From NCBI GenBank assembly GCA_038999435.1, contig JAVZYR010000015.1, positions 1 through 15,315 of the forward strand: a DNA stretch of 15,315 bases, written 5' to 3'. This DNA comes from Candidatus Aenigmatarchaeota archaeon (GTDB lineage: Archaea > Aenigmatarchaeota > Aenigmatarchaeia > QMZP01). Position numbers: made by a program. Shown here piece by piece: positions 1-9,000 of the stretch. The first letter of the stretch is position 1. Each line of letters begins with the position of its first letter.

Positions 1-3000
1 ACAGAGCTTTTCAAAAATGCTGCCCTTGCACTCTTTGAAATAATGGTGAATACAAAAAAAGTTGAGCCAAAGATCAGGAAAAAAATATCTGTGAAAGGTG
101 ATGATATAAAATCTCTGATGTTCAAATGGTTGAATGAATTGATATTTTATGTTGATGCACAAGGGCTTGCATTCTCAAGATTTGATGTAAAGATAGATGA
201 GAAGAAAATGACATTGGATGCTGAAGTTTGGGGGGAGAGGATAAACCCTGAGAAGCATGAAATAAGAGAAGATGCAAAGGCATGTACATATCACAAGATG
301 GAAATAAAAAAGAAAAAAGGTGGATGGGAGGCACAGATAATAATAGACATATAGCAAATGGAAAGACCTAAAAGATGCCCAAACTGTGGTGCAAAGTTGG
401 TTTTTTTCTTAAATGAGTGGGTTTGTCTTGAATGTGAATGGCATGGTCAGAAAATTACAAAAAGGATCAAAGGCTCATTTCGATAATACAAATTTTACAA
501 CAAACCTTTCTTTTCCCTTTTTCTGAACAGCCTTCATTTTAACAGGTATTCCAAATCTTTCTTGCAGCAAAAAAGCCATATCATCAAACCAATCTTTAAA
601 TCCGCATGTCCTGCAGAATGGCCCTGAAAATTCTATGAAAATTGACATTCTATCATGTTTTATGAATTTTGCATTAGACTCAGGTGATCTGTATCTGTTA
701 TACTCATTGATTGCTGCTAAAATTTTTTCTATTTCAGGCTTTCTCATCCTTTCACAACACCAACCGGCACGAGTTTTGCAACTGTCTTGCTAAGCCCTGC
801 TACCTCACAAACCCGCACAACCTCATGTATATTCTTATAAACACCAGGTGCCTCTTCAGCAAGTACAGACCATGAAGCAGACCTAACTGTTATGCCTCTT
901 TGTGCAAGTTCAGTCTTAACCTTCTCCCCTCGATATTTTTTCAGCGCGCCATGTCTTGAAAGAACACGACCTGCACCATGACATACAGAACTAAATGTCT
1001 CCTCTTCTGCCTTCTTCGTTCCAACAAGGATATATGATGCAGAACCCATATCTCCTGGTACAAGTACTGGTTGACCTATCTTTTGATAATCAACAGGTAT
1101 GTCAGGGCTACCAGGCCCAAAACATCTTGTTCCACCCTTTCTATGCACAAACACCTCGCGTATTTTTCCATCTATGCTATGCTTTTCAAGCTTTCCTATG
1201 TTATGTGCAACATCATAGACAACCTGTAGGCCTATATCTTCTTCTTTCATTCCAAGTGTTGATATGATGGCCTGCCTCACCCAATGTGTTATCATCTGCC
1301 TATTTGCCCATGCAAAGTTAGCACTGCAGCACATTGCCTTGAAATAATCCTCGCATTCTTTTGTTCCTGCTGGTGCATACACAAGCTCTCTATCAGGAAG
1401 TCTTTCCACTATCGATTTAAACTTGCTCTCAAGTATGCTAAGATAATCTGTACATACCTGGTGACCAAGTCCTCGCGAGCCTGTGTGAATCATAACACAT
1501 ATCTGGTCAACCCTTTCTATCCCAAACACCCGAGCTATCTCTGGCTGATATATCTCTGCAACGCGCTGTATCTCAAGAAAATGATTTCCAGCACCAAGAG
1601 AACCGAGTTGTGGCATGCCACGCTCTATTGCTTTGTTCGAAACCTTTGAAGCATCTGCCTGGGCCATGCATCCACCTTCTTCTAAATGCCTTATATCATC
1701 CTCTTTGCCATAGCCATTTTCAACAGCCCATTTTGCGCCCTTTTCCAGAACCTCTCTTATCTGGCCTGATGTTAGTTTAACAATCCCTCCTCTTCCAACG
1801 CCAGAAGGTACATTCTTGAATATCGCCTCAACAAGTGCCTGTATCTTCTGTCTTATATCATTGATTGTGAGATTTGTTCTGAGCAGCCTTACACCACAAT
1901 TTATGTCAAATCCTATCCCACCAGGGCTCAGCCCACCTTCTTTTGCATCGAGTGCTGCGACGCCTCCTATTGGAAAGCCATATCCAAAATGCACGTCAGG
2001 AAGGGCTATAGAATGTTTGTATATACCTGGAAGGGTTGCAACATTTACTGCCTGTTGTATTGCACCTTCTTCGATATCTCTGAGCAACATCTCTGAAACA
2101 AAAAACCATGCAGGTACCTTCATTGCTCCTTCTTTTGGATATTCCCATATACAATCCTCAATCCTTTTCAGCCTTTCTTTCATATTTAGATTTACTTTTC
2201 GATTTAAACCTATTCAGCGACAGAATGCCTCGCACCACATGCCTCACAGACTATAAACTCATAGCCTCTTTCTTTTATCAGTCTTGTGTCTGGCTTTCCA
2301 CACTCTTTACATATGACATATTTTTTAACATATAACTCAATCTTTTTGTTTACAGTATCCAATGAAAAGTTACCAAGCACAACAAGCCTTTGATTTACAA
2401 TCTCACCTTTTGTTGCAAGCTCCTTTAACATAAATTTGAGTATATGCTCTTTTGGTCTTCTTAGCATGCCAGCAATATCGAGAAAGTTTGTTATAATGGT
2501 TTTTGCACCTGATGTCTGTATAGAGGCCTTAGGTATCTCAAATCTCTCTTTCGTTTCTGCTTTTTTTGGGATTGCTGATAGCACCTCTTTGAGCAGTTCT
2601 TGATACTCTTCCATAATTTTACTTGTAAGAGGTCTTAAAATCTGTTAAAAATACATGATAGAAATAATAAATATGTTTGAACTTTTTTGCGCACTGCTTA
2701 GCATATCATTTTTAGGCATCCTTCTCTATTGCTTAGCATACAAAAGAACAAGTATAGCATATCTTGTTGCTTTAGGTATAGCTGCATTTATTTTATTAAG
2801 ATATGTCTGGTTTGCATGGGTACTAAGTCCGCTCATGCTTCTACCATTCTTCAAAAAGATGAGATATGAATTTATTATGATGTGTTGTATGTTGCCTGCA
2901 ATCCCACTTGCATACTTTCTTCTTGAGCTTTTCAGTACATCTTCAATCCCTTTCATTGGCTGGGTTGCACTTTTTACTGCAGTGATTGTGTGTGTATTTG

Positions 3001-6000: not shown

Positions 6001-9000
6001 ATTCATGATTGCGGCTGGAGTAAAAAGCATTGCTGCATATCCACCAGGCCTACATTTTCTTGAAGCACCACTTGCAACTATATGCCTTCTTTTTGTCACA
6101 ATACTCGAAATAAGGATAACCCCATTTGATACTGCAGAGGCAGAAACAGAAATACTCTATGGCTATAAAACTGAATTCAGTTCAAGGGGGCTTGCGCTCA
6201 TCGAACTTTCCCGTTATATGAAGCTGCTCTTTTTCATATTTTTCATCACATTCCTCTTTTTTGGTCCAATGCACATAGTCCCTTTTTTGCTTATCAGTCT
6301 AGCAATGCTCTTTTTGCTTACCTTGGAAAAGGTTACAACACCAAGATACAGGGTTGAAGAAGTTTTTAAATTTTTTATTCCTGTACTTGCCCTGGCACTC
6401 ATAGAAATAACAAGATTGATAATATTATAATATGTCGCTGTTAAGAGAGGCACTATCAAATCTGTTTAAAAAGCCGTTTACAAGGCGCTATCCAAAAGAG
6501 GGCGCAAGACCATATCCAAGATTTAGAGGGATGCTCGTCTATAAATCAAAAAAATGCATTGGTTGTCAACTATGCAACAGAAATTGCCCTTCTGCTGCAA
6601 TAACATTTTATAAAAAGGGTCGTATAGATTTTGACATGTCAAAATGCATGCAATGCGGATTATGTGTTGATGTTTGTCCAGTAGATGCAATAGAATGGAG
6701 CACGAATTTTGAAATGGCTGCAGCAGACAAGAAAAAATTTATCATCAGATAAGATCTTTACATATTTTATCCAAAATCCTTTCTGTTTTTGAAACAATTC
6801 CTTTTAGTTGTTTTTTGAGCTCTTTGCTTATCCCTATGCCATAGCCTATATTGTATGGTTGTATGCCTATGATGGCAATTTTTTTATTCAAAAGCCTTGC
6901 TATCAGATCTATTGGTATACTATGCGTTGAACTAAAAATTGTATGCACATCTTCAATTCTGAAAAATTTTACATCGCCTGCCCTTCCACCCCAATCAACC
7001 GCATCCAAAAATATCACAAACTCGGCATCTTTTAAGATATGAAGAAAATTTTCAGGATTAGGACCTGCGCATATCTTCTTGCCATCAAATCTGACTTTTT
7101 TTATAACAATGTTGGCAATATTGTCATCTGATTTTAGAGGATTGCCAACAGAGACAAGTATCTTTTGCATTATAGAAATCTTTATATATCAGAAATCTAA
7201 ATATTTCTATCCATTTGAGGGGGAAAATTAGAATCTTGATTCAGTTAGGGGGACTGAATTAAGATTGAAAGTGAACTGTTTTTGATAGATAAAAGTATTT
7301 AGAAAAGATATTAAAAAGCATTTCGTCACCGCAATATATATATTGTGGTGATGATAAGAAGAAAAGGAGGGAAAAATGCCCGCGATGTCCTCTTTGATAC
7401 AGGACACATTTGAGGGATTTGAGGCAAAACAGGCAAGGATTGTCGTGCTAGGCGCTGGTGGTGCAGGCAACAACTGTATAACAACACTTACAGAGATGGG
7501 TATAGCAGGTGCAGCAACCGTGGCAGTAAATACAGATGCAAAGCATCTTGCAATATCAAAGGCAGATGCAAAGATTTTGATAGGTAAGGAGCTTACACGT
7601 GGACTCGGTGCTGGTGGTTGGCCACAAATTGGTGCAAAGGCAGCAGAGGAATCAGCAACAGAACTGAGAAGGGTTCTTGAGGGTTGCGATATGCTCTTCT
7701 TAACATGTGGTCTCGGTGGTGGTACAGGAACTGGCTCTGCGCCTGTCATTGCAAGGATGGCAAAGGAGATGGGTGCAATAGTAATAGGCTGCACAACAAT
7801 GCCATTCAAGATAGAGGGTGCAAGGATAATGAAAGCAGAAGATGGCCTTTCAGCACTGAGGCAGGCATGCGATACAGTCATCGTTATTGAAAATGACAGA
7901 CTTCTTCAGGTCGCAGGCTCACTTCCACTACAACAGGCATTTGCAGTCGCAGACAATCTCATAGCAACAATCATTAAGGGTATAACAGAGACTATATCAC
8001 AGCCATCACTTGTCAATCTCGACTATGCAGATGTAAAGACAATCATGCACTCAGGCGGTGTTGCTGCTGTGGGTGTGGGTGAATCAGATACAAGAAATAG
8101 GGCAGAGGAGGCTGTGATAAAAGCAATGACAAACCCATTGCTTGAGGTTGACTATGAAGGTGGGACAGGTGCATTGATACACGTCACAGGTGGACCTGAC
8201 CTAAAACTCGATGAAGTCAATCTCGTTGGACAGTATGTCTCAAAGCAGCTTGACCCAAGCGCAATGGTTATATGGGGAGCCCGTATAGAACCAGAATTCA
8301 AGGGCAAAATGCGAGTGATAACCATCGTAACAGGCGTCAAATCGCCATATCTGCTTGGTCCTGCAGAGAGCAAAAAAGTGGAAAAGAGTGTAAGCAACGA
8401 ACTAGGGATAAAGGTCTTGCTATAAGCTGTCTCTTATCCCTTTTTTCCTTTTTATTTTTCTTTTTCCTTTTCTATTTATGAGATGGTTTTTGTCATCAAA
8501 GATACACAAGGCAAGGGTAACCTCTGCTGACATAAATTATATAGGTAGTATAACTGTTGATAGACTTTTGATGGAAAAGGCAGGATTTCAAGCAGTGGAA
8601 AAGGTTTTAGTTGTTGATAATGATAATGGTGAAAGGGTTGAAACCTACATCATACCAGGCAAGACAGGGAGCGGGGTCATAAAAATAAATGGTGGGGCAG
8701 CCAGGCTTATCAAGAAAGGGCATGAAATTATCATAATGGGATTTCAGTTATCAAAAAAGCCCATAAAAGCAAAAATCGTACTTGTAGATAAAAGGAATAG
8801 GTTTGTGAGATATCTATGAAAATAGATGAGGAAAAGGCATTTGCGCTGTTAAAAAAATACTCAATACCTATACCTCGACAGATATTCACTTTGGATATAA
8901 AAAGGGCAATTGATTTTGCTAAGGATGTTGGTTTTCCTGTCTACATAAAACTTTGCTCACCTGAAATTATACACAAAACAGAAGCAGGAGCAGTTAAAAG

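Follow-up and report, generated by a model that had tools for sequence, protein, structure and literature searches.

A group-4 [NiFe]-hydrogenase operon from a lineage of Aenigmatarchaeota that appears to lack HypD, HypE and HypF, and a long HypC protein as a candidate centre of its maturation

The window analysed here, a stretch of 15,315 nucleotides of contig JAVZYR010000015.1 from a Candidatus Aenigmatarchaeota archaeon (genome G000), carries an operon for a predicted Mbh/Ech-like, ferredoxin-dependent, H2-evolving, membrane-bound group-4 [NiFe]-hydrogenase. Judged from sequence, the lineage lacks the HypD, HypE and HypF part of the canonical Fe(CN)2CO machinery, and this extends beyond the order. 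Our main new result is that a lineage-specific long HypC protein is tied to a membrane transporter in relatives. The long HypC and its linked permease appear to track the genomes with neither HypDEF nor a HydG/HypC-HydE module, which points to a HypDEF-independent, possibly import-based route. The genome-wide survey's note had read the cluster as a hydrogenase whose cofactor is made by an unknown route or is taken from the host, and a concrete candidate module can now be given for that reading. We see an even chance that maturation proceeds without HypD, HypE and HypF through a system centred on the long HypC, with the iron unit or the CO and CN ligands perhaps imported in relatives. This explanation is built on gene content, motifs, absences, co-occurrence and gene fusions, from which we infer that iron is bound and handed over, that import occurs and that the enzyme is active. 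All genomes compared (91 in the order sample and 371 in the phylum sample; G-numbers denote MAGs other than G000) are MAGs, that of G000 having 30 contigs and a completeness of 86%.

The gene cluster described in the survey's note is real, with Pfam matches for all listed subunits and for HycI, although its gene list was one short. A short antiporter-like membrane subunit of the MrpD/NuoM/N type (304 aa; 2655..3569, plus strand) represents the C-terminal half only, as had been noted (PF00361 Proton_antipo_M, E 4.9e-8, profile positions 141-293 of 294). The same short form, 288-344 aa long, recurs in G035, in G036 and in all eight loci fetched from other orders, and a full form of 482-520 aa is present in most of the order. 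The additional, eighth gene is an uncalled ORF for a 51-aa single-helix membrane subunit (3566..3721, plus strand), in which a Y-x-GGE-x-D-x-PE motif is followed by a hydrophobic helix, and which overlaps both adjoining genes by a few bases. Using tblastn, it was found between the antiporter-like and NuoB-like genes of relatives (E 8e-17 in G036 and 4e-15 in G035) and at the same position in loci L149-L156 (E 6e-7 to 0.06). The NuoB-like small subunit (134 aa; 3712..4116, plus strand; PF01058 Oxidored_q6, E 1.9e-30) carries the motifs GGCNGC, GACALSGG and VPGCPP, whose cysteines we take to be the four ligands of the proximal [4Fe-4S] cluster. The uncalled NuoC-like ORF of the earlier note also stands (106 aa from the ATG at 4113; 4113..4433, plus strand; PF00329 Complex1_30kDa, E 1.1e-20), its frame being open from a TTG at 4053. 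The remaining plus-strand genes encode the [NiFe] large subunit (386 aa; 4426..5586; PF00346 Complex1_49kDa and PF00374 NiFeSe_Hases), a NuoH-like membrane subunit (283 aa; 5579..6430; PF00146 NADHdh, E 1.2e-55) and a 2x[4Fe-4S] ferredoxin-type subunit (106 aa; 6432..6752; PF00037 Fer4 and PF12838). Convergent with the operon, on the minus strand, lies the gene for a HycI-type maturation endopeptidase (141 aa; 6745..7170), which scores 48.1 bits with PF01750 (cut-off 23), 67.4 with TIGR00072 (cut-off 47.45) and 70.2 with the equivalog TIGR00142, under its cut-off of 119.1.

The large subunit has both CxxC ligand motifs, one reading RICGICPATH (residue 62) and the other DPCFACMER (351-359), with a C-terminal tail of 27 residues behind the latter; the four Ni-Fe cysteines and the tail are thus intact as previously claimed, with the figures 63, 352 and 26 corrected to these values. 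Its closest solved chain is MbhL of Pyrococcus furiosus (6cfw_L, E 1.2e-58), with HycE at 1.6e-53. In the deposited structure, MbhL stops at the Arg of DPCLSCTDR, and the tail of the G000 subunit lies beyond this point. The only known job of HycI is to cut this C-terminal tail once nickel is in, and by family knowledge the precursor here would be trimmed by HycI after metal insertion. Like Mbh (6CFW) and the Ech/HycE type (7Z0S), the complex combines a NuoD-like catalytic subunit bearing both CxxC motifs with NuoB-, NuoC-, NuoH- and 2x[4Fe-4S]-type partners and an antiporter-like subunit. However, Mbh has many Mrp-type subunits, whereas G000 has a single half-size one (304 aa) plus the 51-aa peptide.

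Profile searches of G000 yielded no HypD and no HypE, not even a PurM-superfamily (HypE-like) match, and HypA was not found either. Weak matches to HypF, HypA and HypB proved by Pfam to be Sua5, Kae1/TsaD, rubrerythrin and SRP54, in line with the earlier statement that HypD, HypE and HypF could not be found here. Within the order, a close large subunit (E<=2e-59) occurs in 62 of the 91 genomes, as counted before, and any match in 70 at E<=1e-5, replacing an earlier count of 73. HypD is present in five of the 91, HypE is over cut-off in the same five and HypF in three, all at E<=1e-92; these counts reproduce the survey's for HypD and HypF, and the five genomes carry canonical hypC-hypD-hypE. 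A recount likewise returned 57 genomes with a close large subunit and without HypD, i.e., 57 of 62. Across the phylum, HypD was detected in 11 of 371 genomes; of the 101 that have a large subunit, only 8 are among these and 93 are not. Of 14 control genomes, 4 were positive in the HypD search, each of them over cut-off. Two single-contig assemblies, G037 (1.05 Mb, end reads N) and G339, have the large subunit and no HypD.

The survey's title, which denied the whole HypCDEF set, does not hold for HypC, so that absence of the canonical machinery applies to HypD, HypE and HypF only. The HypC family (PF01455) matches 71 of the 91 order genomes, and in G000 there are tandem matches on contig C10, at 16466-16654 (30.7 bits, over cut-off) and 16050-16214 (25.8 bits). 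This contig encodes a long HypC (151-aa ORF, PF01455 at residues 83-145), whose neighbours are a HypC-like gene that lacks Cys2 and what may be a second paralogue of the long HypC; the short HypC of G000 has lost Cys2. Operon-linked short HypCs are without a His that the five HypCDE clusters conserve in their HypCs. The long HypC is a lineage-specific protein of about 170 aa, consisting of a helical N-domain and a HypC fold with invariant Cys/His/Cys/His; in an alignment of 26 sequences, C14, Y68, F69, H73, C83 and H126 were invariant. An AF2 model (pLDDT 87.5) has five helices followed by an OB domain similar to Thermococcus kodakarensis HypC, 2z1c (Foldseek TM 0.75 on target; VIA Z 6.4). Searching 1.84 billion sequences gave 303 representatives at E<=1e-10, and all source names seen were Aenigmarchaeota or Aenigmatarchaeota. 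The N-domain was matched by no Pfam or NCBIfam model. Some long HypCs match the C-terminal part (profile 175-232) of DUF6390 (PF19927) at gathering score, but this likeness is limited to their HypC-like end, and the G000 copy is unmatched.

Of the 62 order genomes with a close large subunit, 49 have neither HypD nor HydG, and the long HypC was found in 43 of these. It was found in none of the 8 that have HydG together with a HypC-HydE fusion, and in one of the 5 with HypD; this last one, G048, carries both HypCDE and the long-HypC module. The state switches within genera g3, g27, g32 and g40. Of the six 'neither' genomes without a detected long HypC, G085 and G087 are 90-91% complete. The long HypC and an EamA-family permease occur together in 51 of the 91 genomes, with the long HypC alone in 6, the permease alone in 4 and neither in 30; no p-value is attached to this, as kin are not independent. 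HycI, short HypC, long HypC and HypA lie directly 3' of the operon in G025, G026, G033, G034, G037, G039 and G048, and permease, HycI and long HypC are within the cluster in 6 of 8 loci with a G000-type operon from other orders. Gene fusions join the long HypC to EamA (P0138, 545 aa; P0250, 486 aa, 59% identical to P0138 over full length; and P0134), to HycI (P0210) and to the short HypC (P0140 and P0158). Gene order shared inside a single phylum is in part inherited, and DMT permeases are generic, an EamA-family match not naming the substrate that such a protein would carry. A permease orthologue was not found in G000, whose sole EamA protein (C20) is 25-26% identical to the module's permease, as against 49-93% among full-length orthologues. 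With no permease orthologue, no HypA and Cys2 of the short HypC lost, the module is incomplete in this 86% complete genome.

In the route that we propose, the N-domain of the long HypC, with its invariant Cys and His, would pack before a HypC fold with an internal iron-binding Cys and a further invariant His. The protein would hold the iron unit alone, its N-domain standing in for the HypD partner cysteine of the canonical HypC-HypD scaffold, and then pass the unit to the large subunit. In most relatives the long HypC is inherited together with the permease, lies next to it or is even fused to it, which suggests import: there, the EamA/DMT permease may bring in the iron unit, or else the CO and CN ligands, from the host or environment, instead of these being made in the cell. 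G000, which keeps HycI and the long HypC, would be a reduced version. Relative to canonical maturation by HypA-F and an endopeptidase (Escherichia coli, T. kodakarensis), a HycI-type endopeptidase, HypC-fold proteins and, in 42 of 91 relatives, a HypA over cut-off are retained; HypD, HypE and HypF are missing from G000, as is HypD from most related hydrogenase genomes. The long HypC also differs from canonical HypC by its N-domain of 80-110 aa, so its cysteine is not N-terminal.

Two alternatives would remove the problem altogether. The complex might be no working [NiFe] hydrogenase, being a relic or an Mbx/Ehr-like ion-pumping oxidoreductase with cysteines for a non-CO/CN metal site, in which case Fe(CN)2CO is not needed. 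A Cys-less paralogue in the lineage (second copy in G019) and the very reduced G000 genome with its eroded maturation set agree with this. However, 28 of 28 aligned large subunits (35-59% identity) retain the tail, all four ligand cysteines and the motif residues around them, and RxCGxCxxxH and DPCxxCxxR occur in 57 and 61 of 63 large-subunit ORFs, the misses being three intein-bearing ORFs (G049, G068, G086), cut-short or contig-end ORFs (G015, G032) and the G019 paralogue. Moreover, HycI is retained beside the operon in 42 of 63 genomes, counted within the locus fetched from each, HypC-type genes remain linked or fused to HycI, and HypA persists in many relatives, all of which makes this explanation unlikely. 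Alternatively, maturation could be canonical and the Hyp genes missed, being unassembled, unbinned (e.g., on a separate replicon) or too divergent. The genomes are all MAGs, and the five order genomes with hypC-hypD-hypE indicate that the lineage can have these genes. Against this, HypD is missing from so many large-subunit genomes of both order and phylum, including about 15 that are at least 90% complete and the single-contig G037 and G339. HypD matches are also bimodal, with E<=1e-114 or nothing at E<=0.01, and give no sign of a divergent form; and the absences are patterned, complementary to HydG and the long HypC even within genera, and so not the product of random loss in binning. We regard this as the most improbable explanation.

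The other two alternatives concern the source of the ligands, for which a 170-aa protein and a permease alone cannot account where CO and CN are concerned. They could be made in the cell by maturases not yet recognised, e.g., Sua5/Kae1 acting on the long-HypC cysteine or ornithine carbamoyltransferase supplying carbamoyl phosphate, the permease being unrelated or serving nickel or iron. G000 does possess Sua5 (PF01300) and Kae1/TsaD (PF00814, with a HypF_C_2 match), t6A enzymes that are homologues of two HypF domains, but these are universal housekeeping genes without hydrogenase linkage. Ten genomes of family f6 encode a genuine ornithine carbamoyltransferase (378 bits with TIGR00658, cut-off 281) directly upstream of the short HypC; this linkage is restricted to one family and may be inherited synteny. 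What follows the long HypC in family f4 is a VIT1-like protein of an iron-transporter family (not EamA), together with NifU and a cysteine desulfurase. As the lack of any HypE-like match in G000 also speaks against it and CO is left without explanation, in-cell synthesis seems quite improbable. Finally, the host might mature the enzyme, its Hyp proteins providing the iron unit via cell-cell cytoplasmic contact with no dedicated importer, and the long HypC acting as a holding chaperone only. Small genomes (0.55-1.4 Mb) and the absence of HypDEF fit this, as does the symbiotic lifestyle inferred for the phylum in the part of the literature consulted (PMC8407114). But such protein exchange is not known from these organisms, and neither the permease co-inherited with and fused to the long HypC nor the congeners with their own HypCDE or HydG modules would be explained, making maturation by the host very unlikely. 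On sequence evidence, the transporter link and the gene fusions lead us to lean towards import.

Another HypDEF-less state of [NiFe]-hydrogenase genomes is the module of HydG and a HypC-HydE fusion, present in 10 of the 91 order genomes, only one of the 91 having an [FeFe] catalytic domain. Our literature search found no paper on this module in [NiFe]-hydrogenase operons. It is missing from G000 and 48 other order genomes with a close large subunit, and its ten genomes are without long HypC and permease; the long-HypC module, in contrast, is without an evident ligand-making enzyme. A comparable case, as far as the consulted text goes, is that of the archaeal [FeFe] hydrogenases, encoded without HydEFG in most archaeal genomes, for which an alternative pathway, as yet unknown, was proposed (Greening et al. 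2024, Cell, PMC11216029). There, too, the known maturases of an encoded hydrogenase are missing, but enzyme superfamily and maturase set are different ones; HypC and HypD have no occurrence in the main text seen of that article, where the gene key of a figure legend is the only place that names [NiFe] maturation factors. In G007, G009, G040, G045 and G046, the long-HypC module also adjoins a [NiFe] large subunit of a second type.

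The operon at 2655-7170 belongs to a genome (GCA_038999435.1, referred to here as G000) of 549 kb in 30 contigs, which is 86% complete with 0% contamination. Pfam searches bore out the seven genes that the genome-wide survey's note had listed for it. Those on the plus strand are: a half-length antiporter-like protein of 304 aa (2655-3569), which matches the second half of PF00361 only; a NuoB-like small subunit (3712-4116, PF01058), whose cysteine motifs we take to be those expected for the proximal cluster; a NuoC-like protein (4113-4433, PF00329); a NuoD/[NiFe] large subunit of 386 aa (4426-5586), recognized by Pfam and by its ligand motifs; a NuoH-like subunit (5579-6430, PF00146); and a 2x[4Fe-4S] protein (6432-6752, PF00037). 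The last, a HycI-type endopeptidase (6745-7170, PF01750), is on the minus strand. An eighth gene, added here, encodes a 51-aa membrane peptide (3566-3721, plus strand) whose position is conserved in relatives; it was found at the equivalent place in G035 (E 4e-15), in G036 (E 8e-17) and at eight loci from other orders. The partner set of group 4 (PF01058, PF00329, PF00146, PF00037 and PF00361) is present on adjoining, co-directional genes.

The large subunit carries both motifs that mark group 4, RxCGxCxxxH near the N terminus (RICGICPATH at residue 62) and DPCxxCxxR/H near the C terminus (DPCFACMER at residues 351-359), the latter followed by a 27-residue tail. When 28 sequences of 35-59% identity were aligned, none of the four cysteines varied. 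Among 63 large-subunit ORFs, the N-terminal motif was seen in 57 and the C-terminal motif in 61, and a tail of 20-40 residues is nearly always present. The closest solved structure is P. furiosus MbhL (6cfw, E 1.2e-58), followed by E. coli HycE; the deposited MbhL chain stops exactly at the arginine that matches the one in the C-terminal motif of G000. The HycI protein scored over the cut-offs of PF01750 (48.1 vs 23) and of the superfamily model TIGR00072 (67.4 vs 47.45) but under that of the HycI equivalog TIGR00142 (70.2 vs 119.1). It contains GNPLKSDD, FLDAVD and STHSIP, segments that may hold the three metal-binding residues of such endopeptidases (an acidic residue, an Asp and a His). Judged by sequence, the hydrogenase appears to be an unremarkable addition to group 4.

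The same contig carries genes for an ATP-grasp_5 ADP-forming acyl-CoA synthetase subunit and for pyruvate:ferredoxin oxidoreductase subunits (8816-9436 and 11948-14064), the oxidoreductase being represented by a POR_N/PFOR_II protein of 372 aa and a POR gamma subunit of 167 aa. These neighbors would fit a pyruvate fermentation in which the hydrogenase reoxidizes ferredoxin and evolves H2. A 217-aa ORF on the minus strand (7228-7881) was set aside as probably spurious, as it belongs to no family and overlaps ftsZ (7376-8425, plus strand) on the opposite strand.

HypC, HypD, HypE and HypF are treated as the pathway by which all [NiFe] hydrogenases obtain their Fe(CN)2CO group. The note had reported that none of them accompanies this operon. 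For HypD, HypE and HypF this claim holds. At E<=10, neither HypD (PF01924, 0 matches) nor HypE (TIGR02124) was matched in G000, and HypF (TIGR00143) gave only partial matches of 32.8 and 16.7 bits, which are Sua5 and Kae1/TsaD. Weak matches to HypF, HypA and HypB in this genome were all rejected, as Pfam places the proteins in Sua5, Kae1/TsaD, rubrerythrin and the SRP54-type GTPases. Across the order (91 genomes), a close large subunit (E<=2e-59) occurs in 62 genomes, five genomes pass the cut-offs of both HypD and HypE, no others passing either, and three pass that of HypF. The HypD matches in the order are bimodal (E<=1e-114 or none), and the control genomes expected to be positive were so in the same searches. 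Throughout the phylum (371 genomes, one class), the large subunit was matched in 101 genomes at E<=1e-40 and HypD in 11, eight of the latter among the 101. Two single-contig assemblies, G037 and G339, contain the large subunit and lack HypD, the last 2 kb of G037 being N. Because the motifs and the four cysteines are kept across genomes in which these maturation genes are absent, the enzyme is under selection while HypDEF are missing, and genome incompleteness cannot explain the pattern.

The part of the claim that did not stand concerns HypC, since PF01455 matches two adjoining genes on contig C10 of G000; the family is found in 71 of the 91 genomes of the order. The common arrangement there is a short HypC that begins MC..P and, after it, a protein of roughly 170-195 aa with a HypC-like C-terminal third, referred to here as the long HypC. 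In G000 the long HypC (P0006) is a 151-aa ORF with its HypC-type cysteine at residue 83, preceded by no in-frame start; it scores just over the cut-off of PF01455 (29.8 vs 28.5) and under that of TIGR00074 (26.1 vs 48). The short copy is under the PF01455 cut-off (26.8 vs 28.5) and begins MRPKP, without Cys2; the short HypCs of relatives begin MC. Thus, neither G000 copy has the canonical free cysteine after the initiator Met.

Residues C14, Y68, F69, H73, C83 and H126 are invariant in 26 long HypCs from several orders, and P0006 has C14, H73, C83 and H126. The AF2 model of the long HypC (pLDDT 87.5) consists of five helices and then an OB domain. This domain matches T. kodakarensis HypC (2z1c; Foldseek, and VIA-align with Z 6.4), and all Foldseek and VIA-align matches were to the HypC/OB part, none covering the N-domain. 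A histidine of the HypCs in the five HypCDE clusters, which we take to be important for iron binding, is missing from the operon-linked short HypCs and present in the long HypC. The long-HypC family numbers 303 representatives at E<=1e-10 among 1.84 billion proteins, and the source names seen for them are all Aenigmarchaeota or Aenigmatarchaeota.

The long HypC is linked to the hydrogenase and to a transporter. In family f1 the operon is succeeded by HycI on the opposite strand and then by the short HypC, the long HypC and HypA, a series found in full in G025, G026, G033, G034, G037, G039 and G048. Directly 3' of the long HypC (or of HypA) lies the gene for a 302-aa permease of the EamA/DMT family. 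Its identity across families is 52-93%, a conservation far above that of the large subunit; the NCBIfam models returned only generic DMT names, all under cut-off. In six of eight loci from other orders that have the operon type of G000, i.e., with the short antiporter-like subunit and a large subunit 49-59% identical to that of G000, the permease, HycI and the long HypC lie inside the cluster. In five genomes (G007, G009, G040, G045 and G046) the HypC genes adjoin a second, group-3-like [NiFe] large subunit, which ties the module to [NiFe] hydrogenases in general. Fusions were also found: the long HypC is joined to the permease in P0138 (545 aa), P0250 (486 aa) and P0134 (cut by a contig end), and to HycI in P0210, and the short HypC is joined to the long one in P0140 and P0158. 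P0138 and P0250 share 59% identity from end to end, although their linker varies; a fusion retained over such divergence is not a gene-calling accident.

Other neighbors of these genes are seen in single families. In family f4 (L145:8519-11613 in G007; also G009, G016, G018 and G019) a group-3b-like hydrogenase operon precedes the long HypC, a 158-aa VIT1-like protein (iron transporter family) comes after the long HypC in the place of the EamA permease, and NifU and cysteine desulfurase are close by. In family f6, the gene immediately before the short HypC encodes a genuine ornithine carbamoyltransferase (TIGR00658, 378 bits; L138:1629-2537 in G083, and nine other f6 genomes) and is itself preceded by acyl-CoA synthetase subunits; this linkage is confined to the one family. 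In the canonical pathway, cyanide derives from carbamoyl phosphate.

A further gene set was found in 10 of the 91 genomes: HydG (TIGR03955 over cut-off, with the C-terminal CTAC...C motif visible), adjoined by a fusion of about 425 aa that has an N-terminal HypC domain followed by a HydE-like radical-SAM/BATS enzyme. The pair is located at L061:1873-4523 in G014 (contig C6) and at L063:4887-7557 in G051 (contig C4), and occurs also in G010, G011, G013, G015, G020, G024, G066 and G073. G008, a one-contig assembly, has the fusion with HydG not over cut-off. The [FeFe] catalytic domain occurs in one of the 91 genomes, one without HydG, and in none of the ten HydG genomes. HydG was not found in G000, and tblastn with the HydG and fusion proteins of G014 and G051 gave no match in that genome.

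When the 62 large-subunit genomes of the order were sorted by HypD/E, HydG and the long HypC, the last was found in one of the five with HypD/E (G048), in none of the eight with HydG, and in 43 of the 49 with neither (the six without it being G032, G061, G063, G082, G085 and G087). Over all 91 genomes, permease and long HypC occur together in 51, the long HypC alone in 6, the permease alone in 4 (two of them fragments) and neither in 30; every one of the ten genomes with HydG, and four of the five with HypD, fall among those 30. As relatives are not independent, no probability is attached to this co-occurrence. Within genus g32, the long HypC is accompanied by the permease in G007 and G016 and stands alone in G009, HydG is present in G010, G011, G013, G014 and G015, and HypCDE in G012. 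Switches within genera were also seen for G023 vs G024 (g3), G067 vs G066 (g27), and G075 and G076 vs G074 (g40); the within-genus contrasts are four, all in one direction. Three gene sets, HypCDE(F), HydG with HypC-HydE, and the long HypC with the permease, exclude one another apart from G048 and take each other's place even inside a genus.

The proposed maturation route is based on: the intact hydrogenase; the lack of HypDEF; the Cys/His/Cys/His pattern of the long HypC; and its genetic and physical coupling to the permease, HycI, the short HypC and HypA. The long HypC would bind the iron unit alone, its N-domain giving the ligands that HypD gives HypC in the canonical system. The unit, or its ligands, would reach the long HypC at the permease and would be handed on to the large subunit, with the short HypC where present; nickel would come next, with HypA where present, and HycI would cut the tail last. 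As for the source of CO and CN, the note had read the operon as a hydrogenase whose cofactor comes by another route or from the host cell, an interpretation that our results partly support and sharpen, the underlying observation being real except for HypC. The best-fitting reading, albeit a speculative one, is uptake from a host or the environment, because a transporter takes the place of biosynthetic enzymes in archaea that have reduced genomes and are putative symbionts. In its specific form, an iron-carbonyl-cyanide unit made by a host or neighbor, or sources of CO and CN, would be taken up and pass straight to a HypC-type carrier docked at the permease, and fused to it in some species, and from there to the large subunit. 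We regard this salvage as rather unlikely.

G000 itself is the most reduced case, without a permease orthologue (none was found in this 86% complete genome), without HypA, and with a short HypC lacking Cys2. Its only EamA protein is a paralogue on contig C20 with 25-26% identity. The order on C10 (HypC-like gene, long HypC, P0007, YdjM, MFS transporter) recurs unchanged in a close relative, on a contig of 5.5 kb, which shows it to be conserved rather than a quirk of the assembly. A metagenome scan with P0105 returned one 5.5-kb contig, and one with P0006 no relative. Of the sequencing runs listed, the four positive ones are of DNA and belong to a single study, and none is of RNA. P0007, a 188-aa orphan after the long HypC (G000:C10:16682-17248, L011:7683-8249; in the relative L165:2330-2914), has 38% identity between the two copies. 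Its hhalign match to the long HypC is weak (E 0.08 with a single sequence, 0.027 with two) and places a Cys, a Tyr-Phe, a His, a Cys and a His on invariant long-HypC columns; its AF2 model has a pLDDT of 49.4. P0007 may be a very divergent long-HypC paralogue, standing where other genomes have the permease.

As far as our searches reach, the HypDEF-less maturation state and the long-HypC/permease module, both recognized here by comparative genomics, appear to be undescribed in print. The full-text literature search found no paper on HypDEF-less [NiFe] hydrogenases in DPANN, and none that deals with the long HypC or with a pairing of HydG and HypC; the supplementary tables of PMC11216029 might list maturases for the Aenigmatarchaeota phylum. 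Passages of PMC8407114 report group-4 hydrogenases in Aenigmarchaeota and describe a symbiotic lifestyle as putative; a term search of that paper yielded no statement on Hyp genes or HycI, and none on nickel. A passage of PMC11216029 describes HydEFG as lacking for archaeal [FeFe] hydrogenases and discusses an alternative pathway of unknown nature. The phylum studied here retains intact hydrogenases, the protease and HypC-type carriers without HypD, HypE and HypF. If salvage is true, scavenging of an organometallic cofactor precursor by one organism from another would be seen for the first time, and [NiFe] maturation would have a third route beside HypCDEF and HydG/HypC-HydE. The possible sources of the CO and CN ligands and the minimum machinery can now be tested directly with a handful of small genes, which bears on the upkeep of metalloenzymes in genome-reduced symbionts and on simpler hydrogenase production in other hosts.

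The large subunit of G000 is 47-59% identical to those of other orders and 32-45% identical to those of most genomes in its own order, its congener G063 among them. That it is nearer to other orders than to most of its own suggests that the operon has been passed between lineages of the phylum. The closest in large subunit and short-antiporter operon type are G093, G111, G094-G097 (family f7), G134 (f16), G136-G143 (f18), and G035 and G036.

Several variants of the large subunit were noted. Proteins of 917-958 aa in G049:C40 (L125:70-2823), G068:C55 (L124:4789-7543), G086:C10 (L126:7941-10817) and also G340:C102 have an insert of about 550 aa, starting at the second Cys of RxCGxC (RICGIC|LP); lying within the active-site motif, it looks like an intein. 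Second copies were found at G019:C8:13998-15086, G012:C1:37357-38454, G014:C43:2059-3159, G077:C41:9101-10168 and G068:C3:17166-18230. The copy in G019 is without both cysteine motifs and may be Mbx/Ehr-like; in the other four, TGA occurs in frame once or twice, a possible sign of pseudogenes, selenocysteine or sequencing errors. Finally, a TrmO_N-like gene (about 150-220 aa, SAM-binding fold) lies between the NuoC-like and large-subunit genes in G037 (L059:8315-8800), G039, G060 and G061, and near HycI in G009.
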